Source of the DNA: Candidatus Moraniibacteriota bacterium
GTDB lineage: Bacteria; Patescibacteriota; Minisyncoccia; Moranbacterales; UBA1568
NCBI GenBank assembly: GCA_013334575.1
Contig: JAAXXG010000001.1
Coordinates: 143,637-207,636 of the forward strand
DNA length: 64,000 nt
Reading direction: 5' to 3'
This document shows, one piece after another, positions 26,017 through 55,835 of this stretch. The position numbers and the translations under genes are program-made. How positions within the stretch are numbered: the stretch's first letter is position 1; the number at the start of each line of letters is the position of its first letter. The notes beneath the pieces are model-generated. The model did not search any database. It saw only the letters and a program-made list of their open reading frames with translations, and was not told the DNA's origin.

Positions 26017-26032
26017 CGGATACGAAACGAAA

Positions 26033-26076
26033 GCCGACCTCGTCATGTGACGGGCCGGCTTTTTTCTTTTTTTTCG
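26033..26076. terminator. Bidirectional terminator between convergent genes
   Basis: AGCCGaCC-(12 nt)-GGgCCGGCT imperfect stem, followed by a long T-run (TTTTTTCTTTTTTTT). Confidence 0.45.
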
Positions 26077-26088
26077 GAAGAACGGAAA

Positions 26089-26565
26089 TCAGTGATCATA
26101 GCAACAGTCGCAGAACGGACCACTCGGGCAGCCCAAACTTCCGAGTCCCGAAACCGGAACCGTTGCCATAAGCTCCTTGACGGCATCCGGCAACAGGTGA
26201 AGCGCCGCATCGATATCCCCGTCCGTACAGACCTCGCGCACCTCCTTCAGCGGAAGGACTCCCCAGGTTACGAAATAGGCGGTACAGATTCGGGCAAAAG
26301 GCGTCCCGTAGCCCCACCGATACTGATCCCCCGCCTCGTTCAACAGCTTCAGGTGGATCAACCGCTCCAGATCCTCCGCCGTTATGGTTCCGACATCAAG
26401 GAATTCCCTGAGCCTCTGTTGGAAATATAAACCGGAAAGCAGGGTGCGGATCCTTCCCGTCGCTTTATCGTAAAGAAAAGCCACTGCCGACGAAAAACCT
26501 CTCAACTCCGACGGGAGCTCTTCCATAAAGATCGGATTCCTGAAATACGGCTTCTTGTTTTCCAT
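26089..26565 (-). CDS. Hypothetical protein with a Cys-rich C-terminus (CPSGPFCDCCYDH)
   Basis: 158-aa ORF at the left edge of the low-GC cassette. No family recognised. Confidence 0.45.
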   Translation of the reverse strand: MENKKPYFRNPIFMEELPSELRGFSSAVAFLYDKATGRIRTLLSGLYFQQRLREFLDVGTITAEDLERLIHLKLLNEAGDQYRWGYGTPFARICTAYFVTWGVLPLKEVREVCTDGDIDAALHLLPDAVKELMATVPVSGLGSLGCPSGPFCDCCYDH

Positions 26566-26844
26566 GGTCCACCTGCCTTTTCCGTATGATGTTTATAAAA
26601 AGTACCGCCACTACCGTACCAGAAAAAGACCGAACTGTAAAGGATGTCACCGTTCCGACAAGAGCCAACTCCATCATATGGCAAGTCGGTTTTTTTTTCG
26701 AATCATCAGAATATAAAAAGAAAAATTTGATACCATCAACGAATGAAGCAGGTATCCATAAGAATCGACATTATTCTGGAATACTCCCACGCAAAAATAA
26801 GCCCGATTCGGCTTCAAGAAATTTTTAAAAATATCAAATTTCCC

Positions 26845-26873
26845 TTGATTTAAAGGTCTATACAGCATATATT
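26845..26873 (+). promoter_or_regulatory. Promoter candidate for gmd
   Basis: TTGATT (26845-50), 17-nt spacer, TATATT (26868-73) in a 340-nt AT-rich region upstream of the ATG at 26908. Confidence 0.35.
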
Positions 26874-26907
26874 AGATAAGAAGCTGTAATAACCTGTTTC
26901 TACGATA

Positions 26908-27957
26908 ATGAAAGCCCTCATTACAGGTATAACCGGTCAAGACGGTTCGTATCTCGCAGAACTCCTACTCAAAAAAGGGTACGAGGTTCACGGCATCATA
27001 CGCCGATCAAGTTCGTTCAACACCGACCGAATCGACCATCTCTACCAAGACCCTCACATTCACGGTGTCAAACTGTTTCTCCATTATGGAGATTTGGCAG
27101 ATAGCAGCAACATCAGCCGACTAATCGAGAAAATTCAGCCGGACGAGATCTATAACCTCGGCGCACAGAGCCATGTCCGGGTCAGTTTCGACGTTCCAGA
27201 ATATACAGCCGACACAGACGGGATCGGCACCCTTCGCATCCTCGACGCCATAAAGGAGGCTAAGCTCAAAACGAAATTCTACCAGGCATCAAGCAGCGAA
27301 CTCTACGGCAAAGTAGTGGAGACGCCTCAGACTGAAAAGACGCCGTTTTACCCGCGTTCTCCGTATGCGGTCGCAAAGCTCTACGCGTACTGGATTACCG
27401 TAAACTACCGTGAAAGTTACGGGATATTCGCATGCAACGGAATCCTATTCAATCACGAATCCCCTCGTCGCGGAGAGACTTTCGTCACCAGGAAGATCAC
27501 ACGAGGTTTTGCTCGTATACTTTCCGGAAAGGAAGATTGCCTGTACATGGGAAATCTGGAGGCAAAACGCGATTGGGGCCACGCCCGAGACTACGTCGAA
27601 GGAATGTGGCTAATGCTACAGCAAGAAAAGCCGGACGATTATATCCTCGCTACCGGCGAAACACACTCGGTTAGAGAATTCATCGAAGAATGCGCAAAAG
27701 TTGCCGGGATCGATCTCTTTTGGAAAGGAAAAGGCCTTGAAGAAATCGGCGTCGATCGGAACACAAAAAAAACAATCATCCGTATTGATCCAAAATACTT
27801 CCGCCCCGCTGAAGTAGATCTTCTTCTTGGAAATCCTGCTAAGGCAAAGCGACTCCTAAAATGGAAACCAAGAGTGACATTCAAGGCTCTCGCCAAAGAA
27901 ATGATGCGAGCCGACATGGAAAATGAAGGGATACCGTGGATCAAAGACACCGTATAA
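26908..27957 (+). CDS. gmd: GDP-mannose 4,6-dehydratase
   Basis: '[21 protein letters not shown]' together with '[20 protein letters not shown]' and 'NHESPRRGE', the canonical Gmd signature blocks. Confidence 0.95.
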
Positions 27958-27958
27958 T

Positions 27959-28888
27959 ATGAGAAAGGATTCGAAAATCTATGTTGCGGGACATCGCGGT
28001 CTAGTTGGATCCGCGATTACGCGAAAGTTGCAATCCGAGGGATTCGCGAATCTACTGTTTCGTTCAATAGATGAGCTGAATCTGATGGACACGGTCGCGG
28101 TCAATGATTTTTTTAGGTCCGAAAAACCGGAATATGTATTTCTGGCAGCAGCCAAGGTCGGTGGCATCCTAGCCAACGATACCTATCCTGCAGATTTTAT
28201 CTATCAGAATCTCGCCATCCAGAACAACGTTATCCATGCGGCGTACGAACACAATGCAAAAAAACTGCTCTTTCTCGGAAGTTCCTGCATCTATCCACGA
28301 GACTGTCCTCAACCGATCCGAGAAGACTCTCTCCTCACCGGCCCGCTCGAGAAGACTAACGAAGCATACGCAATAGCCAAAATTGCGGGAATCAAGACGT
28401 GTCAGGCGTTTAATAAACAGTTCGGAACAAGATTCATTTCTGTCATGCCGACGAACCTCTACGGACCGAATGACAATTTCGACCTCGAGAGCTCACACGT
28501 CCTCCCGGCCCTCATCAGGAAGTTTCATGACGCCAAACTCTCTGGAGCGAGCGAGGTTGTCATGTGGGGAACAGGCTCACCGAAGCGCGAATTCCTTCAC
28601 GTGGATGACCTTGCGGATGCATGCATCTTCCTCATGAACACGTACGACGAGTCCGAAATTGTGAACATCGGAACAGGAGAAGACGTTACTATAAGACAGT
28701 TAGTAGAACTAATACGTGATATCGTCGGATTCAAAGGACAGGTCGTCAACGATACGACCAAACCGGACGGAACACCAAGAAAACTCCTCGACGTATCATA
28801 CCTCCACTCGCTAGGATGGAAACACTCCGTCACACTGAAGGAAGGCATCCAAAAAACATACGAATGGTATCTCACCTCAAGAAAATAA
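27959..28888 (+). CDS. fcl: GDP-L-fucose synthase (GDP-4-keto-6-deoxymannose 3,5-epimerase/4-reductase)
   Basis: '[15 protein letters not shown]', 'YAIAKIAGI' and 'NLYGPNDNF'. Starts 2 nt after the gmd stop. Confidence 0.9.
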
Positions 28889-29845
28889 CTTCCTAAACCG
28901 ATGTTTGATTCGTCCAATCAGCTCCCATCCTCCGGATTTTCTGATCCTATCAAGCTCCACCAGTAACGCGGTATTCCGATTTTGGAAATCCGAAACGTCA
29001 CCGTCATCCTTCACGGTCGGAATTTCAGACCGAACGGATCGCTTCAGAAATCGGTCTTTCCTCGTAAGTATCCATGCCAATCGATAGGCTTGACTCAGGA
29101 TTTTCCATTCCCACGACCCGTACACCGTATCCAATTCGGTCTGAAGTTGCTCGCCGTACTTCCGAAGTAACCCGATATCGGTCACGCTCCAGAATGACGA
29201 GCGGTTCGACAGATTCAGCTGATAAAACCGGGATTCCTCATCGGACTCATCCCCGCTCTCGTACCAAGGCAGGTGTCTCGCGACATAAGGAAAACCGGTG
29301 CGGATAGACTTCCACCATCGCTTCTCGCTCGGACGGATACCCGGGCGATACAAAGCGAACGTCGTGTCGATAGGTGCGTCATAAAGCCCCGTTTCTATCT
29401 CATTCGTCCAAAAGCAGCTCTCCCAGTCCGTCACGGAACGCTTGAAAACGTATGCGTCTGGCAAGTCATCGATCCGCAGTCCGAAACCGACCTTCGTGAC
29501 ATCCGGATATCGGTCGAGAACATCGGAAAAGTACGATATGGCATCGAGCGGGCAGAGCGCATCAGGAACGACATCACAGTCGGTAACGACATACCTTTCC
29601 CGGTCGATGACATCGGAAAAGGCGTTACTCTCCCAGACGACCAGATGACCGAAGTTCCTGTCCATGCGGTGCACGGTATGTCCGCACGAGTAAAGATACG
29701 AAAGGAGTGGCGGATAAGTCGATGCATTGTCGACGATGCGGATATCCGTATATCCGGAAGCTTCCAGCCACGAGACAAGCGCCCGAAGATACTTCAGGCG
29801 ATTGAATGAAACGATGAAGACCGGAATATCGTGATACGGTTTCAT
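28877..29845 (-). CDS. Glycosyltransferase (GT-A-like, family not assigned)
   Basis: '[20 protein letters not shown]' nucleotide-sugar transferase-like N-terminus plus a DxD-like 'TDCDVVPD'. 322 aa, low GC. Confidence 0.55.
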
Positions 29846-30564
29846 GAAACCAGCCTGCTTTTTGCGTACGCCCGAAAATCGCCAATTAACCTACCCGGAA
29901 GACCGACCTCCCGCCGAGCCCTCGCATTCTCGATCATTCGCCTCCAAGGATGCGAAGAGCTTGCGCCGTCCATCACGAAATTCGAGAACACCCTATCAGA
30001 AACGGCGACCGAGACTCTTCCATCGTGGAACGCCCTTAGACAGAACAGATAGTCGGCAGCGATCGGAAAACGCTCGTCATACGGACCGAAACGGTCATGC
30101 AGATCCTTTCGGTACAGGAGGGAGGGGTGTTGCATTGGTAGCATGGGCAGATCAGAGGGAGACGACCATACGACCGACGACGTGCGACGGTCACGACTCC
30201 AGACACTCGTTTTTCCGTATATCGCACCGACACCCGGACACTCATCCAAGAGCGTAGTCGCAACAGAAATGGTCTCGGGGTCCAACCAGTCACCCGCGCC
30301 GATGACATTCACGTATTCCCCGGTCGCCATACGGATACCCTTGTTCATCGCGTCGTAGATACCGTGATCCGGTTCGGAAACCCACAGAAGACGACCCGAG
30401 AACCTCGGCTCGTACGACCTGATCACATCCACGGTTCCGTCAGTCGATCCCCCGTCGACGATCACGATTTCGAACGCCTCGCTATCCTGCGCCAGAAACC
30501 CGTCAAGAGTGACTGGAAGCAGCCCCGAGGAGTTCCTAGTGCAAATAACGCAAGAAATCTTCAT
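29842..30564 (-). CDS. GT2 glycosyltransferase
   Basis: 'ISCVICTRN...FEIVIVDGGSTDGT...DAMNKGI' with 'GAGDWL'. A 4-nt overlap with the downstream gene. Confidence 0.85.
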   Translation of the reverse strand: MKISCVICTRNSSGLLPVTLDGFLAQDSEAFEIVIVDGGSTDGTVDVIRSYEPRFSGRLLWVSEPDHGIYDAMNKGIRMATGEYVNVIGAGDWLDPETISVATTLLDECPGVGAIYGKTSVWSRDRRTSSVVWSSPSDLPMLPMQHPSLLYRKDLHDRFGPYDERFPIAADYLFCLRAFHDGRVSVAVSDRVFSNFVMDGASSSHPWRRMIENARARREVGLPGRLIGDFRAYAKSRLVS

Positions 30565-30565
30565 A

Positions 30566-31573
30566 CTAAATTTTCTTTTCCCTTCTCAAAGCATAGTAAA
30601 CTTTTCGGACTGGTTGCCGAAGCCAAGAATGCAAAATTTTCGTGTAATATTTTTTCAAAAATTTTTTTGGGGAAAAAATGACAAAACCTATGTTCAAGCT
30701 AATTCTAGAAAAATTTTTTCGCACTGCGGGTAAAAACTCATACAAAAAATATGCCTGAACAATTGAACATCCATGAACATGACTCAAAATACCAAGGGGT
30801 AATCGCTTCGTCGCTCGAATTCTTCTACACGTATCAATATCAGTTACAGAAATCGTATTATAATACTTATATAATACTTTTGCCGCTTCTTCATCCCCCT
30901 CATATATCAGCTCGGTGGACATTCCGGAAAGACGATATGTTGTAAATATCCGATCAACAAAAACGCTGTCGTATTTCCGAATAACGAGACGTAAAATTAA
31001 ATCCAAATCACCCATAATTAATAAACTATCATCAAACATCCCCTCCCGAAGCAAAACATCCCTTCGAGTAAACATCGTCTGATGATTAAAGGGTGATGCG
31101 GAGAAAAATACGCTGCTGAGATCCGGATATACTACCCACTGACAAGATTTTTTTTGATCTAAAATTTTTGCCGGAGCATAAGAAAATGCTGCTCCCGATC
31201 TCTCGAGCGCTTCAACCGACCACTCAACTCCATGCAAATCGTGCCAATAATCATCTGAATTAAGAAAAACAACATACTTTCCGCGAGCATGCATAATCCC
31301 CTTATTCATCGCGTCATATATGCCTCTATCAGGCTCTGAGATATACCTTAGCCTCTTATACTTCCTGACACATGACGCAAGAAGGTCCGCCGTTCCATCG
31401 TTCGAAGCGCCATCAATAACAATATGTTCTATATTCTGGTACGTTTGCAGATGCACCGATTCAACGCTCTGTAAAAACGTCTCCTTTCTGTTATTCCTAA
31501 TCAGGTTAAAAGTAACCGTCACAACGGTTACTAATGGCAGATTCTCATGATCAATGCGCCTGTCTTTTTGCAT
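30566..31573 (-). CDS. GT2 glycosyltransferase
   Basis: 'VTVVTVTFN...HIVIDGASNDGT...DAMNKGI...NSDD'. Start uncertain, either 31573 or 31633. ~37% GC. Confidence 0.8.
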   Translation of the reverse strand: MQKDRRIDHENLPLVTVVTVTFNLIRNNRKETFLQSVESVHLQTYQNIEHIVIDGASNDGTADLLASCVRKYKRLRYISEPDRGIYDAMNKGIMHARGKYVVFLNSDDYWHDLHGVEWSVEALERSGAAFSYAPAKILDQKKSCQWVVYPDLSSVFFSASPFNHQTMFTRRDVLLREGMFDDSLLIMGDLDLILRLVIRKYDSVFVDRIFTTYRLSGMSTELIYEGDEEAAKVLYKYYNTISVTDIDTCRRIRATKRLPLGILSHVHGCSIVQAYFLYEFLPAVRKNFSRISLNIGFVIFSPKKFLKKYYTKILHSWLRQPVRKVYYALRREKKI

Positions 31574-32834
31574 AAACTTCACGATAGAGATCTGCGTATT
31601 TCTCGAGACACTTCTTTTGTGTAAATTTCTCAAGAAATCTATCTCGAGCCGCTATAGACGCCCTTCTTCTAAGGGCTTCGTCGGCCAAAAACAGATTGAT
31701 ACCTCTCATGAAATCATCAAAGTCTAAATACTTTGCAAGATATCCGGAATTCATATGATCAATCTCTTCCGGAACACCTCCAACATGGAAACTAACAACC
31801 GGAAGAGCGCAGGCCATCGCCTCTAAAACAACGAAAGGCAAATTATCGGCCATGGTTGGAAATATAAATAAGTCCGCAGCAGAATAATACTCAACCAGGC
31901 GTGCCTTATCATAGACGTATCCGCGAGTCATCACGTTCGGATAATCCAGTTCCCCATCATGACCGACGACCAAAAACAAGACGTCCTCCAGACATGTCAT
32001 CTTCTCGATCGCGCGTAAAACATATCCGCCCCCCTTCTGCGGATTATGTACAGATCCATCAGCAAGAAACAGTAAAATCTTTTTGTCCAGAGGAAGGCCT
32101 AATCGTTTCCGCGCGGCCCGCTTATCAATGGGACGCCAAACCTCTTCATCAATTCCATTGTAAATCAGACGGATATCTTTCGCCCCAAGCATACTTCTTG
32201 AAACACGCTCTTTCAACCATTGTGACGGCACGACGACCGTAAAATCTGACTCGTCATAAATTGTTTTTTTCAGTCTCCATAGATAGCCAGTCGAATCTCT
32301 CCTGAGACTCGGATAGTATGATAAAGCCGGACATGACCCACACCCACTGTGCCATCGTTCGCATGAGAATGAGTAAGCGCAGTGACCAGTAAAGCTTTGT
32401 TCGTCATGCAGCGTCCATATCGTTGGCTTTCTAGATGTTAACAACGGAAGCACCTTTGGATTGATATAATCCCCATGAAGATTATGCAAATGAAGTACGT
32501 CTGCTTCTTGAAAAAAATCGTGCGCCAAAAGATTGTCACTATCATGATGTAAGTCCAGCAATCCAAACCATCGATAATAATTTTTTCGCACTACCTGCCA
32601 CCACGAATGATTCTTCCTAAGAACGGCTACCTTTGCATCATCGAGAACTTTCGATTCTGCGCATATCATATATGTAAGAAACCCAAGGCGCCGCATTCCA
32701 ACGCAAAGCATATCGTAAGCCGCACGAGCCGCCCCACCATGTCCTGCAATAGTATTAACAATCAGCACTCCCTTTGGGTTCGAGGTCGCTGAATTATTGC
32801 TGGCATCAAAAATGGAATTTCGAAACTCATCCAT
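31551..32834 (-). CDS. GT4 glycosyltransferase (GT-B)
   Basis: The C-terminal 'GGVPEEIDHMNSGYL' E-x7-E region and 'LPVVS' are typical of GT4. Confidence 0.85.
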   Translation of the reverse strand: MDEFRNSIFDASNNSATSNPKGVLIVNTIAGHGGAARAAYDMLCVGMRRLGFLTYMICAESKVLDDAKVAVLRKNHSWWQVVRKNYYRWFGLLDLHHDSDNLLAHDFFQEADVLHLHNLHGDYINPKVLPLLTSRKPTIWTLHDEQSFTGHCAYSFSCERWHSGCGSCPALSYYPSLRRDSTGYLWRLKKTIYDESDFTVVVPSQWLKERVSRSMLGAKDIRLIYNGIDEEVWRPIDKRAARKRLGLPLDKKILLFLADGSVHNPQKGGGYVLRAIEKMTCLEDVLFLVVGHDGELDYPNVMTRGYVYDKARLVEYYSAADLFIFPTMADNLPFVVLEAMACALPVVSFHVGGVPEEIDHMNSGYLAKYLDFDDFMRGINLFLADEALRRRASIAARDRFLEKFTQKKCLEKYADLYREVYAKRQAH

Positions 32835-32886
32835 AGAAAATCACTCGCTATCCGAACAACCGGCTGGCTAAAAAATCATCTGATTA

Positions 32887-33780
32887 CTACGTAGATTTTA
32901 ACCATTTAGTCACGGATACGCATATTCGCCGAAAAAGAGTCTTTTTTTTCAGGCCGAAGGTATTCTCGTATGTCCATTCGACCTCCTTCATATTTAACTC
33001 AAGCCTCCTAGGATGTAAAATCTCCCCCATCTCATAAGTAGGTAAATTAAGATGAGGATCGTCGCCAGAATAATGAACGCCGTAAACGCCAATATTTGAA
33101 ACAAGATTCTTTGAAGGATTTATACAGAGCCCTTTTTCCTTAAGGATTGCGTAAGTCCATTGGTAATCCCAGACATTATCTTGCTCCTTTTCCATTTTTT
33201 GAAAGATATCTGACCAATATTTGGCGACTTCCTGCCGAGCAAAAGCCTCTTTATAGTTCAATTCTTTATGGTCTTTTATGTGATACTCAAACGATTGCCA
33301 CCGGTCAGCCCATGTCGCCCACCCCCAACAGTGCTCAATCTGCGCAAAATAATAGCTCGCACTACTTCGAAATTTCTTATTAAAATTATTACCGGAGATA
33401 TGCCATACCCGCTTCTCATCGGAATAATAATCAAGCAATGTCTCGCAGAACCTAAAGAAGTCTTCGTGAGGCAGGCAATCATCCTCTAGGATTATTCCGT
33501 CTTTTTCATGCTCAAAAAACCAAGATATACCGCCAGAAACCGCCTTTCCACATCCAAGATTTTTATCGCGAAATAAGGTATGAACTTCACATTCCCAATC
33601 GATACCATCTATAACAAGCTTTCTAACCCGTTCAACAAGCTCCTTCTCGCCTTCTATATTTTCTCGAGCGCCGTCGGATGCGACATACATGCGCGACGGA
33701 CGGACGGCGCGAATAGCCTGAAGCACTTTTAAAGTTGTCTCTGGCCGATTGAAAATGACTAATAAAACCGCTTTTTTCAT
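32887..33780 (-). CDS. Putative nucleotide-diphospho-sugar transferase (GT-A-like)
   Basis: 'KAVLLVIFNRPETTLKVLQAI...DGARE' N-terminus and 'EDDCLPHEDFF'. Low GC. Family assignment is tentative. Confidence 0.5.
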   Translation of the reverse strand: MKKAVLLVIFNRPETTLKVLQAIRAVRPSRMYVASDGARENIEGEKELVERVRKLVIDGIDWECEVHTLFRDKNLGCGKAVSGGISWFFEHEKDGIILEDDCLPHEDFFRFCETLLDYYSDEKRVWHISGNNFNKKFRSSASYYFAQIEHCWGWATWADRWQSFEYHIKDHKELNYKEAFARQEVAKYWSDIFQKMEKEQDNVWDYQWTYAILKEKGLCINPSKNLVSNIGVYGVHYSGDDPHLNLPTYEMGEILHPRRLELNMKEVEWTYENTFGLKKKTLFRRICVSVTKWLKST

Positions 33781-34580
33781 AATTGCCCTCTCCCAAATAT
33801 CAAAGTCCTCCTTGTTCGAGCAAGAACGCTATAGCCACGCTCCCTCAAAAAATTATACTCCTCCGTTTCTTCATATTCCATAATATCTCTATCAACAATA
33901 TCGAGAGCTTCTACAAGCAAAAAGTCCGGTCTATAAAGATCCCAATCAAGCGATTGTAATATTACATAGTCTAACCCTTCAACATCCAGGTTCATGAAGT
34001 CTATTTTTTTTCCTTCTGGCACGTACTGCTTAAGCAACTCATTAATATTCAATGTTCGAATAGACTCCTTACCTAGAAGCTCCCACCCCTCACGAATTCG
34101 CAACTCGCTTATCTCTTGATTAAAAGAGTTTAGAGCTGGCTCGCGAAAGCTATAATATTGCAACACTCCTCCTACTTCAGAAATACCGGCTTCGATGTTT
34201 ATATCGTGCACCCTTTTTCTATTGAAAAGCTCCATAGATCCTGGAAGGGCATCTATATTGATCCCGCTCCATCCGCGTTCATAATAATACTGCGTATTCG
34301 AATACCTATAAGGATGAAAAGCTCCTATATCAACATAGAATCCTTTGTACCCTGGAAGTGACTCATAAAATGCCGCTAAAACTATATCTTCCCCATCTTG
34401 CGAATACGATCTCCTAGAGTATCGAAAACGCTCGGACTCGTCCAGGTTTTCTACGCTTTTTTTTATCTCATTAAAATCTGCGATGGCTTCCTTCATCTCG
34501 ACTATCGCATCATTAACCGAAAAAAGCTTCTCCTCTAATCCGCGAAAATAATCTGGAATTCGTTTTAAGGGATTCTTCAT
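33777..34580 (-). CDS. FkbM-family SAM-dependent methyltransferase
   Basis: 'YSQDGEDIVLAAFY...GFYVDIGAFHP' is the FkbM signature. It lies adjacent to wzt, as terminal-capping methyltransferases do in ABC-transporter-dependent O-polysaccharide pathways. Confidence 0.8.
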   Translation of the reverse strand: MKNPLKRIPDYFRGLEEKLFSVNDAIVEMKEAIADFNEIKKSVENLDESERFRYSRRSYSQDGEDIVLAAFYESLPGYKGFYVDIGAFHPYRYSNTQYYYERGWSGINIDALPGSMELFNRKRVHDINIEAGISEVGGVLQYYSFREPALNSFNQEISELRIREGWELLGKESIRTLNINELLKQYVPEGKKIDFMNLDVEGLDYVILQSLDWDLYRPDFLLVEALDIVDRDIMEYEETEEYNFLRERGYSVLARTRRTLIFGRGQL

Positions 34581-35836
34581 ACTCTTTCTTTGAACTCTTT
34601 TACTGCCATCTCGTAATCAAAATCTATCGGACTCCAATTCACACGGTCGCTAAAGACCTGAATTTTTGCAATTGATTCTCTTGCGTCAAGAACTTCGAAC
34701 TTCGCGTGTGACTTTACATCCGCAGTTGCAACATAGACATTATACGAACCAGGCGCAAGAAGCATCTCACCGGATATGGTACATTCCAATGCAGTACCCT
34801 TGGCAACCTCTCCATATCTTAGAGGTTTCCTTGAATATAAGCTGTGAGCGCCATAAACGTCCCTCCCGAAATTATCTTTAAACATCAGTTCGAAAGTTGG
34901 ATTCGAAACACTCGAAAGATACTTGATAATGATTTTTACGTAGAATTTTTTTCCTGTCTCTAAGACGAAGGTCTGATCATGCGAGCTATTTTCAAATACA
35001 CAGGACTGAATTATAGCTCTCTTGCTGCCCGCATCAGAATGAAGATCGACTTTCTCCTGTTCCATGATCTGCACTTTCATCCGCCTCTCTTCTTCGGACA
35101 TGTTTATGTCCATGTACCTGTAAATAGCCTGTTTTGAATCTCCGATAAATTCCATTTTTCCTCCATTTAAAAGCATCACTCTATCACAATACTCGCCAAC
35201 AGTCTGAATATCATGAGAAACAAGCACAACTGTTTTCCCTTTTTTCTTGTATAATTCGAACTCATTAATGCATTTCGCCTGGAAGTTGGAGTCGCCGACG
35301 GCGAGGACCTCGTCCATGAGAAGGATGTCGCGGTTCGCGTGGATGGAGACCGAGAACGCGAGGCGGACCTGCATGCCGCTCGAATAGTTCTTGAGCTTCT
35401 GGTCGATGAACCGGCCGAGTTCGGAGAATTCGACGATCGAGTCGAACTTTTCGTCGATCTGTTTCTTGGTCATGCCGAGGACGGTCGCGTTGAGGTAGAT
35501 ATTGTCGCGGCCGGAGAGTTCCGGATTGAACCCGATGCCGAGCTCGAGGAAGGGCGAGATGAGACCGTTCGTACGGACCGTTCCCTTGTCCGCCTCGTAG
35601 ATGCCGGCGAGGATCTTGAGGAGGGTCGACTTGCCGCTGCCGTTGCGGCCGATGACGCCGAAGAACTCCCCCTTCTTCACCTCGAAGGAGACGTCGTCGA
35701 GCGCCTTGAACTCCTCGAAGGTGCGCTTTCCCTTGAGCGCGCCCACGAACGCTCCGCGTATCGAAGACACCTTCTCGTGCGGAATGCGGAAGGTCTTGGA
35801 GACGTTCTTGACGCTTATGGCGATATCCTGGTCCAT
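34577..35836 (-). CDS. wzt: O-antigen/teichoic-type polysaccharide ABC exporter ATP-binding protein with a C-terminal carbohydrate-binding extension
   Basis: Walker A 'GRNGSGKST', signature 'YSSGMQVRL' and Walker B 'ILLMDEVLAVGD', followed by a ~170-aa C-terminal beta-rich domain. GC composition switches from high (5' 560 nt) to low (3' 700 nt) inside the gene. Confidence 0.85.
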   Translation of the reverse strand: MDQDIAISVKNVSKTFRIPHEKVSSIRGAFVGALKGKRTFEEFKALDDVSFEVKKGEFFGVIGRNGSGKSTLLKILAGIYEADKGTVRTNGLISPFLELGIGFNPELSGRDNIYLNATVLGMTKKQIDEKFDSIVEFSELGRFIDQKLKNYSSGMQVRLAFSVSIHANRDILLMDEVLAVGDSNFQAKCINEFELYKKKGKTVVLVSHDIQTVGEYCDRVMLLNGGKMEFIGDSKQAIYRYMDINMSEEERRMKVQIMEQEKVDLHSDAGSKRAIIQSCVFENSSHDQTFVLETGKKFYVKIIIKYLSSVSNPTFELMFKDNFGRDVYGAHSLYSRKPLRYGEVAKGTALECTISGEMLLAPGSYNVYVATADVKSHAKFEVLDARESIAKIQVFSDRVNWSPIDFDYEMAVKEFKERV

Positions 35837-35962
35837 TCCCCTATTCTACCCCATTCCGAACGTTCTTCCCAGTCAGACGGACAGTTGACAAAATATCGGG
35901 AAAAAGCCATATTAAGGAGCTGTTTCAAAACATTCATCAATCTATCCCGCAAGGAGGCTTCT

Positions 35963-36631
35963 ATATCGCTTCAACCACCGAAGGACTTACCCCGCATCCA
36001 AAAACTTTCCCACCGTCGTCTGGACATCGGTAAGCCCATCATCCTCTGGACGAAAAAGGATCCCTATTATGGAAACGGGGTCGGATTCCGCTACGCAATC
36101 GCTGACGCCGATCCGAAAACCGGAACGCCCGCCACCTGCCGAATCGTACTCGCATCCAATCATCCGGACCTCGTTCTCGGCAAGGCGTATGCAGCGACCG
36201 TCGAAGCCGTAAAGTGGCCCGATAAGCCATGCTGGATGCGTCGATACGATAGACCCTCAGTCGAGATCTCCTACCTGTCGGTCTTCGATGTGACCCCGGT
36301 GCCGATCTACGAAACCATCCGGATCTTCGAGACCGAAGCAGCCGTCTATACCTGGACCGACGGTTATCTCATCTCGGAGCACCGGATCCCGATCACGAAC
36401 CGACGGAAGGATTTCCGTTATGACAACCGGGTGGTCAGGACGATCGAGTATTCCGACTCGTATGGCACCTTCCGCCGGGACGAACTACCGCCGGATACGG
36501 ATATGTCGACATACGGACCAGAGGATTTCGATGCTCTTCCGGAACTGACCGACGGGCAGCATCGCACTCTTGGAAACTTCTTCGTCACCCCGAGAAACTT
36601 TGTTCTGAGAAACGGAAAGCCGCCGGCGTAA
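35963..36631 (+). CDS. Hypothetical protein; start codon uncertain
   Basis: High GC3 coding signal from ~35990 to the stop at 36631. There is no in-frame ATG. Candidate starts are ATA at 35963 (SD AAGGAGG 5 nt upstream) or TTG at 35885. The tool ORF (from 35339) runs antisense through wzt and is not believed. Confidence 0.4.
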   Translation: MSLQPPKDLPRIQKLSHRRLDIGKPIILWTKKDPYYGNGVGFRYAIADADPKTGTPATCRIVLASNHPDLVLGKAYAATVEAVKWPDKPCWMRRYDRPSVEISYLSVFDVTPVPIYETIRIFETEAAVYTWTDGYLISEHRIPITNRRKDFRYDNRVVRTIEYSDSYGTFRRDELPPDTDMSTYGPEDFDALPELTDGQHRTLGNFFVTPRNFVLRNGKPPA

Positions 36632-47452: not shown

Positions 47453-47812
47453 CTACTCGTTCCGGTCCCCGCCGAGAAGCCCGAGAATCCCTTTCACGAC
47501 CGAGCTGACGAGCGACATGACGAGCGACCCGAAAAGCGCCGCGCCGAACCCGTCCACCGAGAATCCCTGAATGACCCCGCCGAGCCACGCGAAGAGGATC
47601 GCGTTTATCACGAAGACGAAGAGCCCGAACGAGAGGATGGTGACCGGCAGCGTGAGCACGACGAGCACCGGCCGGACGACAAGTCCGAGTATCCCCCATA
47701 CCGCCGCGAGCAGGATGGCCGTACCGAAACCGGCCACGTGCACCCCGGGCACGAACCGCGCCGCCACGAAGAATCCCACCGCGACCGCAAACCACCGGAA
47801 GACGAGTTTCAT
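47453..47812 (-). CDS. YvlD/DUF360-family small membrane protein (phage-holin-4-like)
   Basis: Start at MKLVFRWFAVAV. 119 aa with 4 TM helices. 'GFGTAILLAAVWGILGLVVRPVL' is typical of this family. Confidence 0.5.
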   Translation of the reverse strand: MKLVFRWFAVAVGFFVAARFVPGVHVAGFGTAILLAAVWGILGLVVRPVLVVLTLPVTILSFGLFVFVINAILFAWLGGVIQGFSVDGFGAALFGSLVMSLVSSVVKGILGLLGGDRNE

Positions 47813-47944
47813 AGCTGTATCGTTACGTATCTCTCCTGCGGACAGGATATCATTTCCTCCGCGACACACAAGGACTCGAGGAATAAGAAAACTCCGCCAC
47901 ACGCTTCCGTGGACGGAGTTTTATCACACCAGGTCGGTTCCCGG

Positions 47945-50569: not shown

Positions 50570-50602
50570 ACCGTATTGGGAGGAAATTCGCGTCCTCGCG
50601 TT

Positions 50603-50952
50603 CCCGAGACGGGCTCGTAAGCCGGATTCTGTTCAAACCATCATTTGTCTGGGACCGCCGTTACCGGCGGACTCGAGCGGCACTCCCAGGATCGCTCCCG
50701 GGCACGGCCTTGCACACGGGTAAGGATTTAGCCGTTTCACCCCGCACGTCACCGTGCGGACTCGCCCGACTCCTTACGGGGCCGGGCGCCTCGTCCTTTC
50801 GGACGAAGGCGTCTCTGTTCGCACCTCGCGCCTCGCGGCGGACGGGCGTTACCCGCTACCTGTTCCCCGGGGATCGCTCCCCGGATCGTGTGTCCGGACT
50901 TTCCTCCCCGGCTACCCAAGAGGGCGCCGAGGCGATGGTCCGGCCCGTTTCA
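50603..50952 (-). ncRNA. rnpB: RNase P RNA, bacterial type A
   Basis: The minus strand carries GAGGAAAGUCCGGAC (CR-I), GGUAACGCC (CR-II), GGGGUGAAACGG (CR-III), AGACAAAUGAUGG and ACAGAAUCCGGCUUA (CR-V). The P1 stem is ACGGGC/GCCCGU. Ends are approximate to ±10 nt. Confidence 0.9.
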
Positions 50953-51029
50953 GGAACGCAAACACGCGAAAAAACCCTCCTCTTACCCCTCTATGGTATC
51001 ACGGACCCCGCAAAAAGTCAATATTTGGC

Positions 51030-51422
51030 TCATCTGAGCCGTTTCCACGGTTTCGCCTCCCAAGCGAACATCCCGAAACTGATGACCACGAACGCTACGC
51101 TCATCCAGAGTGAAACCTGCTCCTTCGTCGGATCCATCGAGAAGAAACCGTGGCGATATGCCGGCGTAACAAGAACAAGAAGCCAAGTCGCGGGAAACCA
51201 AATACCTGAAAAAATACTCCACTTCCGGAAAAGAGCATCAGAAAAAATAAAAAGGAACGGGAAAACCACAATAACCGAAAGCAACGAATGAAATAATGTT
51301 CTTGCGGCCGGAATACTATCGCCACCCATGCATCGTTCTATACTTTTGCTGCACGGAAACAATAAAACGAATATTAAGGCAACAATAACTACGGCAAAAA
51401 ATTGCAGTCTATAACCTTTCAT
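51030..51422 (-). CDS. Small multi-TM membrane protein, paralog A
   Basis: 130 aa with 3-4 TM helices. The C-terminal 49 aa are near-identical to paralog B. AT-rich. Confidence 0.5.
   Translation of the reverse strand: MKGYRLQFFAVVIVALIFVLLFPCSKSIERCMGGDSIPAARTLFHSLLSVIVVFPFLFIFSDALFRKWSIFSGIWFPATWLLVLVTPAYRHGFFSMDPTKEQVSLWMSVAFVVISFGMFAWEAKPWKRLR
51041..51188. repeat. 148-bp direct repeat, copy 1 (copy 2 at 51491-51638, 1 mismatch)
   Basis: The sequence gtttccacggtttcgcctcccaagcgaac...gaagccaagt occurs twice, 450 bp apart, differing by a single C/T. Each copy encodes the conserved C-terminal region of a small membrane protein. Confidence 0.9.
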
Positions 51423-51479
51423 ACTTTTATTCTTTCATAAAGATACCTTCGAATCTTGAAGGGAATAATTACTTCTTCC

Positions 51480-51896
51480 TCACCGAAGTTGTTTCCACGG
51501 TTTCGCCTCCCAAGCGAACATCCCGAAACTGATGACCACGAACGCTACGCTCATCCAGAGTGAAACCTGCTCCTTCGTCGGATCCATCGAGAAGAAACTG
51601 TGGCGATATGCCGGCGTAACAAGAACAAGAAGCCAAGTAAATACGAACCAAACACCCGCATATATACCCCACTTCTTGTAAGTCTTATCACTTACGAAAT
51701 ACGAAACAAAAGAAACGGGGAAAAGAGCTTTCGAAAACATTACGAGCGGATAAATCACATTAAACCGAAGATTATCAAAGGGACATTCTCCTATACCATC
51801 TGGAAAACAAATTCTCCAATCATAAAATATCCCCATGATAACAATAGCCGCGCTTGAGAGAAAAACGACCGCTCTAATGATTTTCATATCTCTCAT
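51480..51896 (-). CDS. Small multi-TM membrane protein, paralog B
   Basis: Start at MRDMKIIRAV (alternatively MKII at 51887). The tool ORF starts at an upstream GTG that overlaps the preceding gene. It begins 11 nt after the stop of the large hydrolase gene. Confidence 0.5.
   Translation of the reverse strand: MRDMKIIRAVVFLSSAAIVIMGIFYDWRICFPDGIGECPFDNLRFNVIYPLVMFSKALFPVSFVSYFVSDKTYKKWGIYAGVWFVFTWLLVLVTPAYRHSFFSMDPTKEQVSLWMSVAFVVISFGMFAWEAKPWKQLR
51491..51638. repeat. 148-bp direct repeat, copy 2
   Basis: See copy 1. Confidence 0.9.
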
Positions 51897-51907
51897 ACGT
51901 TTTATCT

Positions 51908-54900
51908 TCAATATATCACATTCGCCTTTCCCTTCTCCGTCTCGAATTTCGGAATAATCAGACCCGGTATCCACTCCACCGAAGGATACCCGGCGCCACG
52001 GTTCCCAGGAATGGGATACCGAATCAAAAGCGTCCGATCAACCAACGGTAGATAGGACGAGGCTAACCGTTGAGAGCCACTTTGAAGTTCAGACGTCAAG
52101 AATACATGCCGATTCCGGACGGGACCAAGAAACCAGTCATACCTTGCACTGCAAGAAACGACCGAAGAAGGCGATCCATCATACGTGACGGATAATGACC
52201 CGATATCCGACGATCCGACACGATCCGTCCGATCGAACGAAACGGACGTCTCATGACCGGCCTCATCACGAATCAACGCTGAGACACGGACCATTCCTTT
52301 CTTTCTGAAGACGGGTTTCTCCGTCGTTTCAACGGAAACGGCATCCACGCCGCTTACCGCGACACCTCCAACGGAAGCGTCAAAGCCGATTCTCGCCTCC
52401 GGGGCGACCTTGTCGATCCGCACCTCGAAATACCGCTCGTTTTCGACGTTTCCCGCCATATCAGTCGCGCGGAAACGGATACTCGTCGCCCCCTCGCGAT
52501 CTACCGAAAACGGACCGGCATATTTATTCCACTCCGCCGCGTCTCCAAGGACGTATTCGATCCTATCGACACCACTTCCATCCGCTCCGTCATCCGCAGA
52601 CAGCGCGACCGATACGGATCCGACATACCACCCGTTTTTCCCAGCCTTTCCCGAGACGCTCGCGGTCGATATCGGAGACGCTCCATCGGGTGGCAGAGTC
52701 GCCGAACCGTCAAGTATCGGCTCGACGATATATTCACCACCCGCGGAGGTCGTGTCATAATCCGCACGAAGCGCCGATAGTTCCTTTAGCCCTTCTGCCG
52801 ACACCGAAAGCTCGACCGCCGTCTCCGGCCCAACCGGAAGCGCTTCAAACGTAACATTGGAACGAACCGTCTCGGTACCGTCGGACGCTTCGTCAACCTC
52901 ATCCAGTCGAAGCGTATATGCACCTTCCGCATAGCCGGAAAGATGAATCTTCACCGGATATCCGGCGGGGAACGAGAGATACTTCCGACCACCGAGATCC
53001 AGATAGGTACTGCCCGGAATTCCGACCTCGACATCCGAATACCGCGCCCCGTCAGCTCCGATTATCGGAGCGCCAACAGGTCCGGTATGGTTCCCTTCGG
53101 CATCTTCCAGACTGATGTCGAGTGGAGAATGAAGAGAAACTCGAATTTTTGGTTTCGCGTTATCATAGTCAGTTGGACGATCTGTCTCGATGTACTCCGG
53201 AAGATGGCTTTCATCATCTTTTCTAAGAATTATTTTCTTTATTAATTCGCGAATTGTTAATCCTTCAAGAAGTTTTCCGTGATTTATATTGGAGGTACTT
53301 GCATCATTGTAGTCATACAAATTTAGCCAATACCGCTTCACATTCCCATCTGAATCGCTCATCAGAAGCGCGCTCGGTGTTGTCACGACCGCGTCGCCGT
53401 CAACGGTGAACTCGGGTTCATATACGGGAGTCGCTCGTTCCGACTTCCAGCAGGAAGGAATTTTCCCATTCGAAACCGGCCGGCACACCGATTCATATTC
53501 CTCGGCATACCGAACCCCGCGAACCGTATCCAACCCCCATCCGGCAATCTGGATGACTTCTACACCGGCCGGAGGCGTCCAGGAATCCAAATCGTCATGC
53601 ATGGCCTGCGAAAGGTCCAGCAACCTGCCATTAAGAACGTTCTCAGCCTCGACGTCGTTCGGATCCGGCTTACTCCGTCCGTCCTTCGTACCGGAAAGGA
53701 ATGATTCAAGATCTCCCCGGCTTTCGATTTCCTTTCCGTACGAATGCAGATAATCAGCATATCTTGTCCACTCCGAATCGAACCGAACGAGAGGTTGTCG
53801 GGTCCGGCCGAAATATTCCGAGGAGGGAAGAAGCCCGTACGCTCCCGGCATATTCTCGGCCAGCGTTCTCGCATCGGACCGCGTCGCAAGCAGACCGCCC
53901 AGGATGGACTCGTCGTATCCGTACAGGAGCGAGAGGATCGATATCGGGGTCCCCATCTGCGGAGTACCGACAAGAATCACGCGGTCGACGATCCCGGCAT
54001 CTCCCTGCTCTTCCAACTGCTTCACGAGCGCTTTCGCGACCAGTCCGCCGTTCGAATGGGCGACGATCGTCACCTTCCCCGTCTTCGAGATATCGGCCAG
54101 TTCACGTATCCGATCAAGTAGTCGCCGTTCACCCTCCCGGTATGGCGTACTTTCAGAAACAACATCCTCGACGTCCATCCTCCAATCGTACGCGAACGGG
54201 ACGTATCCGGTTATCGTCCCGACGTCCTGCATGCCTTGCAGGTCGGACAGGAACGACTCATAGTATCGGTCCGGACCGACCGAATCCAGGACGTCGTCGG
54301 TATACACGTCATGAACACTGCGTCCGTCGGAATTGAGCGCGAGATCGTCAAGGTCGTTCCCGAAAAGGGTCGGCGGCCACAACTGATCTTCGCCTGAACC
54401 GCTCCTCGTATAGAGACGACTCGCCTTGATACCCGGAAGGAAGAGGACGTTCGACGCCATGTCGGACCGTTCCTGAACGTTCTTATCACGATTGAATCCG
54501 ACGAGCCGATGAGGCCCGGATATCCGCTCACCGCCACCCTGCGGATACCTGTCACCCGACGGGCCGGAGGAAGAACCGAACCAGTCGTTCTCCAGGGAAA
54601 TACGGCCGGAATAATCTGCTTCCCCATCGTATTCGATGAGGGAAACAAGCGCGGTTTTGTCGGAATCTCCTTCGAAATCGGAATCCTTGATCCGAATAAG
54701 ATCCGTAGAATCCCACTCGTCGGAAAACCACATGGATACACGGACTCCGGCATAGGCTACGTTGTTGCGAAACACGGAATGCTCGATGAGCAGTTTTCCA
54801 TTCCGATACTCGATTGCCGGCGCAATGAATGCCTCATCTTCCGCAGCAATCGCCATGTGACCCAGCCAGGAGCGGAATCCGCCCGTATCGACAGCGTACG

Positions 54901-55435
54901 ACGGGCAGTGTCCGGCATACGGCTTCCTATCGGAGCCCATGCCATCGAAAATGACGTTTCTGAGAATCGATGCCTCGTCATTCTCTTCCTGATAACCGAA
55001 GAACCCGATCGTCCCGGGCGGAAACACCCGATAGCATTCCTCGTCATACTCACCCGCCCCGTTCGGTGGCAGCTTGATATACGAGGGAGCCGGTACGAAT
55101 ATCACAGGCTCGGAATCGGTTCCCTGCGCATCGATCCGACCGCTGAACACCTTAAGCTCGCCGATTTCGACCTTCGTACCCTTCTCGATTGTCAGCGTCG
55201 CGCCGTTTACGACGGCGACAGGCTTCGTAAGATCAGTCTGACGAAAAGAGCCTGTCCAAGTGGTATCGGAATCTATCACTTCATAATCCTCATAGTTCTG
55301 CCACAGATCCTCATCCTCAGCTGAAACATTTCCCACGAAAACCGAACGCAACGAAGGCGCTATCAAAGCAAGGCACAAAAAAATCACCGCACTCCCGGTG
55401 ATAGAGAAAAAATATCGACGAAGCATATCAGTCAT
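51908..55435 (-). CDS. Large secreted multidomain protein with an alpha/beta-hydrolase (lipase/esterase-like) domain and Ig-like (Big_3-type) domains
   Basis: ~1,176 aa. Signal peptide 'MLRRYFFSITGSAVIFLCLALIA', nucleophile-elbow 'TIVAHSNGGLVA' (GxSxG-like), an Ig-like repeat 'VDRIEYVLGDAAEWNKY...RATDMAGN' and a beta-helix-like N-terminal region. The true start may be ATG at 55435/55426 rather than the tool's GTG at 55441. Confidence 0.7.
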   Translation of the reverse strand: MTDMLRRYFFSITGSAVIFLCLALIAPSLRSVFVGNVSAEDEDLWQNYEDYEVIDSDTTWTGSFRQTDLTKPVAVVNGATLTIEKGTKVEIGELKVFSGRIDAQGTDSEPVIFVPAPSYIKLPPNGAGEYDEECYRVFPPGTIGFFGYQEENDEASILRNVIFDGMGSDRKPYAGHCPSYAVDTGGFRSWLGHMAIAAEDEAFIAPAIEYRNGKLLIEHSVFRNNVAYAGVRVSMWFSDEWDSTDLIRIKDSDFEGDSDKTALVSLIEYDGEADYSGRISLENDWFGSSSGPSGDRYPQGGGERISGPHRLVGFNRDKNVQERSDMASNVLFLPGIKASRLYTRSGSGEDQLWPPTLFGNDLDDLALNSDGRSVHDVYTDDVLDSVGPDRYYESFLSDLQGMQDVGTITGYVPFAYDWRMDVEDVVSESTPYREGERRLLDRIRELADISKTGKVTIVAHSNGGLVAKALVKQLEEQGDAGIVDRVILVGTPQMGTPISILSLLYGYDESILGGLLATRSDARTLAENMPGAYGLLPSSEYFGRTRQPLVRFDSEWTRYADYLHSYGKEIESRGDLESFLSGTKDGRSKPDPNDVEAENVLNGRLLDLSQAMHDDLDSWTPPAGVEVIQIAGWGLDTVRGVRYAEEYESVCRPVSNGKIPSCWKSERATPVYEPEFTVDGDAVVTTPSALLMSDSDGNVKRYWLNLYDYNDASTSNINHGKLLEGLTIRELIKKIILRKDDESHLPEYIETDRPTDYDNAKPKIRVSLHSPLDISLEDAEGNHTGPVGAPIIGADGARYSDVEVGIPGSTYLDLGGRKYLSFPAGYPVKIHLSGYAEGAYTLRLDEVDEASDGTETVRSNVTFEALPVGPETAVELSVSAEGLKELSALRADYDTTSAGGEYIVEPILDGSATLPPDGASPISTASVSGKAGKNGWYVGSVSVALSADDGADGSGVDRIEYVLGDAAEWNKYAGPFSVDREGATSIRFRATDMAGNVENERYFEVRIDKVAPEARIGFDASVGGVAVSGVDAVSVETTEKPVFRKKGMVRVSALIRDEAGHETSVSFDRTDRVGSSDIGSLSVTYDGSPSSVVSCSARYDWFLGPVRNRHVFLTSELQSGSQRLASSYLPLVDRTLLIRYPIPGNRGAGYPSVEWIPGLIIPKFETEKGKANVIY

Positions 55436-55835
55436 ACTCACTGTTTATGCCATAACTCCATTTCAAAGATATCATGCGACTCACAAAGAGAAAAGTTACA
55501 TCTGGCATCCTTCGGAAATGACACCGCCCGGGAGGGATACTCTCGGGCGGGAATCGGCAGGATTTGCCGGTTTTCGGAAAAGCGGGTTCGGACGCGGTCA
55601 GCAGGACGGCTCAACCGACGAACGAGACCGAGGAAAGGAGAAAGAGAAAGGCAAGAATGAATCCCTTCTTTTCCCATATAAAACGAAGTGTCTTTCGAAC
55701 CGCGATCGGCTCCGGATTGGCAGCGAACGGAGAGAGGCTGACTGCATTCACAGTAAACACCGTCTCGCCGGCCATGACAAGGCGGGGAAGAAAAGACGGG
55801 TTGTATATTCCGATAATGTAGAGGGTGGGATGGAA

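Follow-up and report, generated by a model that had tools for sequence, protein, structure and literature searches.

The closest described relatives of the enzyme considered here are the lipid-acting hydrolases of the LCAT/LPLA2 type (PF02450), known from the structures of human LPLA2 (4X90/4X97) and LCAT (5TXF). The enzyme is encoded in a stretch of 64,000 nucleotides (the window) on contig JAAXXG010000001.1 of assembly GCA_013334575.1, from a Candidatus Moraniibacteriota bacterium that belongs to the Candidate Phyla Radiation (CPR), or Patescibacteria. Bacteria of this group account for much of bacterial diversity, and most of them are reported to be incapable of producing membrane lipids of their own. 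The locus comprises three genes that run in the same direction on the minus strand: the first specifies a giant exported enzyme, and the two that follow, here called the proximal and distal partner genes, specify small proteins with four transmembrane (TM) helices. The enzyme shares with LCAT and LPLA2 an A-H-S-x-G nucleophile elbow, the order Ser...Asp...His of the catalytic residues and a D-G-D motif at the acid. It differs from the human proteins in that identity to them is only 15–19%, and in that it is bacterial, its hydrolase being set within a surface protein of ~1,170 residues between β-helix and Ig-like domains. It is, moreover, always paired with a four-TM partner gene, and no activator of the kind of ApoA-I is known for it.

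In the Tle/Tli systems, too, the gene for a lipase precedes a small cognate gene, and of the latter there are sometimes several copies. Tle4 of Pseudomonas aeruginosa (4R1D) has the FxPGI motif of the oxyanion loop and the HSxGGL motif of the nucleophile in common with the enzyme (profile E 0.0086), and the similarity in fold is real, though weaker than that to LPLA2. Known Tli proteins are soluble or lipoproteins and present a large binding surface; Tli4 itself is periplasmic and soluble, while the partner described here has four TM helices and lacks a soluble domain. Unlike Tle/Tli pairs, the module is lineage-wide rather than patchy in distribution, and its enzyme is exported by a Sec signal. 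Polymorphic toxins combine a conserved N-terminus with a variable C-terminal toxin. Here, by contrast, the central hydrolase is the best conserved part and the N- and C-terminal regions vary; nor is the distribution patchy and mobile, synteny with SecDF and tyrosyl-tRNA synthetase (TyrRS) being kept in the nearest clade. In the lipA-lif operons of Pseudomonas and Burkholderia, Lif has a single TM helix and, in the periplasm, a large helical domain that wraps the lipase, while the partner is a compact four-helix membrane bundle. Finally, the OmpL47-type surface-protein domain of Leptospira (NF047446) occurs just once in the enzyme; the model of the full-length OmpL47 equivalog reaches 48.6 bits, its cut-off being 250, and the rest of the protein is unrelated.

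Catalytic core and architecture of the enzyme

Judged by its sequence and its predicted structure, the core of the enzyme is a serine α/β hydrolase of the LCAT/LPLA2 type, a lipid-acting fold, with an intact predicted triad of Ser463, Asp683 and His721. An earlier note, made from the letters of the window without database searches, had described a giant Sec-secreted open reading frame (ORF) with an AHSNGG nucleophile elbow and had found nothing that tied it to a named family. The former description is borne out by an ORF of 1,177 codons with the elbow at residues 461–466, a hydrophobic leader and signal peptides in relatives; the latter statement has to be withdrawn. Over residues 400–690 the Pfam LCAT model PF02450 reaches 42.6 bits (E 6e-11), twice the level of its cut-off of 21. 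It is the sole α/β-hydrolase model above its cut-off, and precomputed annotation assigns the family to nearly all of the 120 homologs listed. The Tle3 model (PF24322) reaches 16 bits against a cut-off of 27 and covers the stretch of the nucleophile elbow only.

The active site is strictly conserved. H462, S463, G465, G466, D683 and H721 are invariant in an alignment of 50 sequences. The Ser-Asp-His triad, which the earlier note had singled out for checking, was counted over a set of 220 sequences and is invariant in the 216–218 relatives aligned at each position (Table 1). An AlphaFold2 (AF2) model of the enzyme, made with 50 homologs and having a mean pLDDT of 86, was compared with the PDB using Foldseek. 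Lysosomal phospholipase A2 (LPLA2) was the top match (E 4e-13, TM-score 0.71), followed by LCAT (TM-score 0.65). The LPLA2 alignment takes in 325 of 376 residues, most of the chain, and is the best match by a wide margin; the likeness thus goes beyond the hydrolase core. When the PDB was searched by sequence, with either the enzyme or its profile, weak matches near the nucleophile elbow were all that was obtained, and it was the comparison of structures that revealed the fold. A score above the curated hidden Markov model (HMM) cut-off, the triad and elbow, and the similarity in fold all place the enzyme in the LCAT/LPLA2 family. Its fold family is known, and the architecture built on it here is new for bacteria.

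In the AF2 model, a leader helix (residues 4–34) is followed by a ladder of short strands (54–316), an α/β region (330–740) and an all-β region that extends to the C-terminus, and the Ig-like and β-helix-like domains read from the sequence in the earlier note are matched by the model and by Foldseek. The leader has a basic n-region, a hydrophobic core and a predicted cleavage site between VSA and ED, and classical signal peptides of the AXA type are found family-wide in the relatives' enzymes. Its start is ambiguous, with a GTG at 55441 and ATG codons at 55435 and 55426 as candidates; the protein may be 1,172 residues long, as the nearest relative begins at an ATG corresponding to codon 6. Foldseek matches of the C-terminal stalk are SiiE, S-layer and FN3/Ig modules, and a conserved tail motif, a β-strand tail, closes most of the relatives' enzymes. 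More than 1,000 homologs of the enzyme were found, nearly all labelled Moranbacteria, while an exact-protein look-up with the window's own enzyme returned no record.

Domains of the β-helix and Ig-like kinds typify adhesins and polysaccharide-active enzymes. The enzyme could accordingly be an esterase or acyltransferase that acts on a wall polymer, a lipoprotein or a polyester from an adhesin-like scaffold, with the partner merely co-transcribed. This is an unlikely account, given that LPLA2 is by so wide a margin the best structural match and LCAT the only Pfam family above its cut-off. The invariable adjacency of enzyme and partner in ~85 loci with differing neighbourhoods, set out below, argues in addition for a functional tie between the two.

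The partner family and its linkage to the enzyme

Enzyme and partner form a lineage-wide conserved operon module of Moranbacteria. Among 599 pattern matches in species-representative genomes, 583 were confirmed as relatives of the enzyme, so that at least 583 genomic matches are available, nearly all labelled Moranbacteria or Parcubacteria; a few records are titled Bdellovibrionales, Micavibrio, Saccharibacteria or Fimivivens, labels that are unverified. The best 80 of these loci, with 29–54% identity, were combined with eight reached through exact-protein look-ups to give the 88 loci (numbered with the prefix L) of an enzyme-led scan. The partner HMM identified a same-strand ORF directly downstream of the enzyme gene in 71 of the 88. 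In 16 of the remaining 17 the sequence stops no more than 108 nt from the enzyme gene, and the last is L059. This locus was at one stage regarded as an unlinked exception, a view that was dropped once a divergent four-TM ORF with the Cys loop had been found 32 nt downstream of its enzyme gene.

A scan in the opposite direction gave the same picture. For a partner-led search of metagenomes an alignment of nine sequences served as the pattern, one of 83 sequences being too diverse. An enzyme gene lay directly upstream in 14 of 16 loci and the other two start at the partner gene. The earlier note had asked whether the small genes are encoded elsewhere in related genomes; no unlinked copy appeared in either scan. 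The gap between enzyme and partner has a median of 17 nt and is no longer than 45 nt in 75 of 79 cases. Across 81 loci there is one partner gene in 69, two in eight, three in three and five in one. SecDF, TyrRS and a cytoplasmic Ser_hydrolase flank the module in the nearest clade only. Since the flanking genes differ beyond that clade, it is the enzyme-partner pair itself that is the conserved unit. Viral contigs contained no relative of the module, and a phage-borne origin was dropped for this reason.

The pair is not described in the literature searched, and the partner family is absent from the databases searched: no Pfam, NCBIfam or PADLOC model matches it. Sub-threshold matches to DUF202, YoqO and MSC_0624, of a kind typical of hydrophobic sequence, were dismissed as compositional. 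A word-based search matched only the three paralogs of a sister genome, and the family was instead found by exhaustive profile search. At E ≤ 1e-3 this yielded 248 cluster representatives at 50% identity, almost all of 120–150 residues. Against the family HMM the proximal and distal partner genes of the window score 137 and 127 bits, respectively.

Both small proteins of the window are predicted to have four TM helices (AF2 pLDDT 89), to which the distal one adds a short loop helix. In the models the extramembrane loops are 6–17 residues long and there is no soluble domain. The termini are basic at both the N- and the C-end. Conserved features of the family are two Cys residues in the loop between TM1 and TM2, each at least 90% conserved, a motif F-x-x-D-x-x-F-x-x-W after TM2, a motif P-x-Y...P-T/D-K-E-x-V-S-x-W in the loop between TM3 and TM4, and a Ser in TM4 that is invariant. 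If the positive-inside rule is applied, the two conserved loops would face outward. Two family members, P0250 (294 residues) and P0207 (265 residues), contain two partner-like four-TM units fused in one ORF. These fusions may hint at dimers or oligomers of the partner, or they may be missed stop codons.

The partner genes are also unusual in composition. In 80 homologous genes (L001–L104) the GC content of the 5' half is ~0.10 below that of the 3' half and of the enzyme gene, and ~0.16 below it at third codon positions. The deficit is equally strong in single-copy and arrayed genes. In the window the 5' halves, at 51189–51422 and 51639–51896, have a GC content of 0.37–0.39, the repeat shared by the two genes 0.53 and the enzyme gene 0.545. 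The AT-richness that the earlier note ascribed to the small genes is therefore real, although confined to their divergent 5' halves. Recent horizontal transfer and a by-product of gene conversion in arrays were both ruled out as its cause, as the deficit is family-wide and includes single-copy genes.

The order of a lipase gene and a membrane-protein gene, together with their tight coupling, recalls the lipA-lif operons and raises the question of whether the partner is a helper in export or maturation. As such it would release, fold or activate the enzyme in a foldase- or holin-like manner, and would take no part in the handling of lipids or in protection. Most of the enzymes are without an anchor once the signal is cleaved, and the fused double partners would fit with oligomerisation of the kind seen in holins. 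Nevertheless, such a role appears improbable. The enzyme already has a Sec signal of its own, and the partner lacks the soluble domain that steric chaperoning would call for. It matches no foldase or holin family, the foldase families of Pfam and NCBIfam included. A helper role would also leave unexplained the conserved disulfide-type loop and the multiple types of N-terminal half described in the next section.

Concerted evolution of the partner arrays

Much of what the earlier note reported on the small genes stands exactly as it was given, namely two small multi-TM genes with divergent N-termini, gaps of 11 and ~57 nt, and a 148-bp direct repeat with a single mismatch. The first gap, from the enzyme stop codon to the proximal ATG, is 11 nt, or 20 nt if the start at 51887 is used, which is the form annotated in the sister genome; the second is 57 nt. 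On the 5' side of the repeat the two genes are barely alignable. At such a length the repeat cannot have arisen by chance. Its only mismatch is non-synonymous (Gly/Ser), and none of its 49 codons shows a synonymous difference.

The sister genome is a metagenome-assembled genome (MAG) of Candidatus Moranbacteria, GCA_013336155.1, whose contig L001 is 98–99% identical to the window over ~20 kb and encodes a protein 100% identical to the distal partner. L001 has three small paralogs (135, 144 and 130 residues) to the window's two. The difference is a clean indel of 572 bp, both ends of which lie within sequence that L001 contains in duplicate, namely the spacer together with the homogenised 3' half. 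Such an indel would be the expected outcome of unequal recombination between repeats; a collapse during assembly would look identical. Copy number varies from one to five over the family and between two and three in strains that are 98–99% identical, which answers the earlier note's suggestion that it be compared across related genomes. The same strains differ in the enzyme gene. A mosaic segment that encodes the loop of His721 and the next helix is ~35% identical to the allele shared by L001 and L105, while its flanks are ~98% identical, and the window's allele is the nearer of the two to the family consensus.

In all arrays (window/L001, L020, L053, L056, L074, L085 and L089) the N-halves of the partners, comprising TM1, the Cys loop and TM2, are divergent, and the C-halves are alike. 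Paralogs at one locus share 13–43% identity in the N-half and 53–99% in the C-half. The N-halves match partners from distant genomes (41–63%) better than they match their own paralogs, whereas the C-halves match their neighbours at the same locus far better than they match those of distant genomes. This contrast is weakest in L020, an exception where the C-halves are 53–60% identical within the locus and one copy is closer to an outside C-half (68%). At least three types of N-half recur across lineages; types A and C are present in the window, and A, B and C in L001. The N-half of the proximal gene is closest to the single-copy partner of a distant locus, L008. The combination of old, shared N-half types with C-halves that are alike implies that the tandem duplications behind the arrays are old and that the 3' halves have been repeatedly homogenised. 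That gene conversion keeps the C-halves alike within a genome is supported by these sequence comparisons, and the earlier note's description of the paralogs as gene-converted is upheld by the contrast in identity between the halves and by the lack of synonymous differences.

The longest array, at positions 4520..6726 of L089, holds five tandem partners behind a single enzyme with its own C-terminal TM anchor, and the start and stop codons of its genes overlap or abut. Contigs L002, L003 and L009 end 14 nt past the enzyme gene, and L105 breaks off inside the first small gene, after 279 nt. Such breaks where the array begins, in separate assemblies of close relatives, fit with fragmentation induced by repeats, and copy number in short-read MAGs may accordingly be underestimated.

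In relatives (L002, L003, L009 and L105), contigs frequently stop at the enzyme gene, just past it or at the very start of the repeated half, and the window could be a collapsed form of the three-copy array of L001. It might therefore be asked whether the 148-nt repeat and the two-copy arrangement are themselves artefacts of assembly. This is very improbable. The repeat is in frame within two intact ORFs that have different 5' halves, and the same mosaic pattern is seen in the independent assemblies and lineages that contain arrays. A collapse could alter the number of copies; it could not create the pattern.

Table 1. Features of the enzyme-partner locus, in positions of the window.
Feature	Position	Strand	Basis or remark
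Enzyme gene, exported multi-domain protein	51908..55441	-	1,177 codons from GTG; ORF list, homologs, AF2 model
N-terminal Sec signal/hydrophobic leader, residues 1-41	55319..55441	-	Sequence reading, AF2 helix 4-34, homolog N-termini
Right-handed β-helix domain, ~residues 54-316	54494..55282	-	
LCAT/LPLA2-like α/β-hydrolase domain with cap, ~residues 330-740	53222..54454	-	
Ser463 codon, predicted nucleophile in A-H-S-N-G-G	54053..54055	-	Ser in 218/218 aligned relatives; between strand 457-462 and helix 465-478
Asp683 codon, predicted triad acid in V-D-G-D-A-V-V	53393..53395	-	Asp in 217/217 aligned relatives
His721 codon, predicted triad base	53279..53281	-	His in 216/216 aligned relatives
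Allelic mosaic segment, residues ~707-766	53146..53327	-	blastn gap against L001; protein alignment of window, L001 and L105
C-terminal stalk, β-sandwich (Ig-like) domains, residues ~765-1177	51911..53149	-	AF2 all-β; Foldseek
OmpL47-type domain, residues 939-1009	52415..52627	-	NCBIfam NF047446, E 7e-20, 71 bits against cut-off 40
Proximal four-TM partner gene	51480..51896	-	138 aa, or 135 aa from ATG 51887; N-half type A (ICFPxGxGEC loop)
148-nt homogenised segment, proximal copy	51491..51638	-	End of TM3, outer loop TPAYRH.FFSMDPTKEQ, TM4, tail
57-nt spacer between small genes	51423..51479	-	Sister strain: same spacer twice, either side of third (middle) paralog
Distal four-TM partner gene	51030..51422	-	130 aa; N-half type C (PCxxSIERCxGGxS loop)
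148-nt homogenised segment, distal copy	51041..51188	-	One mismatch to proximal copy

Scans for promoters and terminators inside the module gave nothing above shuffled expectation. Downstream of the distal partner gene, at a distance of 78 nt, lies an RNase P RNA of bacterial class A (RF00010, 102 bits, full length; 50602..50951, minus strand), and a promoter-like sequence, TTGACT-17-TACCAT, is found immediately upstream of it (51021..50993, minus strand). Just upstream of the enzyme gene is a gene for a cytoplasmic serine hydrolase without a signal peptide (PF06821; 55836..56540, minus strand), whose synteny is limited to the nearest clade (L001, L002, L008, L011 and L012). A gene for a small membrane protein, a member of the Phage_holin_4_2 family (PF04020), lies downstream of the module at a distance of a few genes in the window (47453..47902, minus strand) and in L001; in L059 a PF04020 gene (4142..4489) directly follows the partner gene. 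Further away, a block of low GC content at ~26000..36000 (0.40–0.49, against ~0.58) is a surface-glycan cluster. It includes genes for a GDP-mannose 4,6-dehydratase (26908–27957), an epimerase/reductase (27923–28888) and a Wzt-type ABC ATPase (34577–35836), as well as two GT2 and one GT1 glycosyltransferases and an FkbM methyltransferase.

Possible roles of the pair

The reading that we favour, with a probability of roughly one half, is that the module consists of a surface phospholipase or acyltransferase with a dedicated membrane partner, and that it probably acts on the lipids of neighbouring cells. In the mechanism proposed, the β-helix would bind envelope glycans of a neighbouring (host) cell, and the hydrolase, a phospholipase A or transacylase, would act at the interface with the membrane. 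It might in this way release lysolipids and fatty acids from foreign membranes, or transfer acyl chains from them. Through its outward loops the partner could dock the enzyme on the membrane of the producer, take up the products or shield the producer's own membrane. The earlier note had offered a hydrolase with membrane subunits as its alternative, and this fits the data better than the filing that it preferred.

A lack of lipid synthesis has been reported for CPR bacteria, cells of CPR size are enriched in lysolipids, and the mechanisms of lipid uptake are unidentified (PMC11665869; PMC7242380). Field data point to neighbours as the source of these lysolipids (PMC7242380). The idea of lipid harvest draws on this literature about the CPR and not on genes of the present genome. 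In its most specific form, the module would be the machine by which a lipid-auxotrophic CPR lineage acquires lipids: an LCAT-like transacylase at the surface would remove acyl chains or lysolipids from a host cell's membrane and pass them to four-TM acceptor or insertion proteins in the membrane of the symbiont. The constant C-half of these would couple to the enzyme, and the interchangeable N-half (types A, B, C and others) would set the lipid or the host. This elaboration is speculative and unlikely to be correct.

Several observations weigh against a surface enzyme with a dedicated docking or uptake partner. The extramembrane loops of the partner are very short for a docking site. A C-terminal TM anchor is present in five of 89 complete enzymes of relatives and all five still keep the partner, so that anchoring alone cannot be the partner's role. 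Tandem arrays with variable halves, and a change in copy number at the level of strains, also resemble arrays of immunity genes.

The last point leads to the proposal of the earlier note, which had filed the locus with polymorphic effector/immunity systems such as Tle/Tli. By this logic the exported lipase attacks competitors or hosts, the small membrane proteins confer immunity, and the additional N-halves neutralise the lipases of other strains. Several observations are in keeping with it: the linkage is strict and the genes abut, the arrays contain two to five paralogs with variable halves, and copy number differs among strains that are 98–99% identical, the same strains in which the enzyme is mosaic around the loop of the catalytic His. 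Tle4 is, moreover, the closest bacterial structure, and a PF02450 protein has been noted in a variable region of the type VI secretion system of Pantoea (PMC3942780), which counts towards the same proposal.

Other evidence points away from it. Neither the enzyme nor its neighbours contain domains of type VI or type VII secretion systems, VgrG/PAAR/LXG domains or trafficking domains, and VgrG, Hcp, PAAR and adaptor families are missing among the genes called around the counterpart of the window and at six further loci, over ~10 kb to either side. The enzyme is exported by a Sec signal and the Tle3 model stays below its cut-off. Instead of a swappable C-terminal module, the hydrolase is the conserved core of the protein. 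The distribution is lineage-wide, with a single partner in 69 of the 81 loci, and the arrays hold partner genes only, without orphan toxin fragments between the paralogs. The short loops of the partner are unlike the large binding surface of Tli. Furthermore, the types of N-half do not track the enzyme, being common to genomes whose enzymes are merely 40–50% identical. Sec export, the lack of secretion-system or polymorphic-toxin features and the lineage-wide spread together argue that the locus is not a Tle/Tli cassette, and the filing of the earlier note is not retained. A function in attack and immunity in the broader sense keeps real weight, though as the less likely reading.

As a probable surface phospholipase or acyltransferase with its membrane partner, the module offers the CPR a concrete, clonable candidate for lipid uptake from neighbours, or for attack on host membranes, in the form of a lineage-wide, exported LPLA2/LCAT-type enzyme with an invariant active site. 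The arrays of partner genes provide a clean natural case of concerted evolution in half a gene, with constant C-halves and old, shared types of N-half. Even if the pair proved to be a self-protected lytic enzyme only, it would still represent a new effector/guard architecture in monoderm, ultra-small bacteria.

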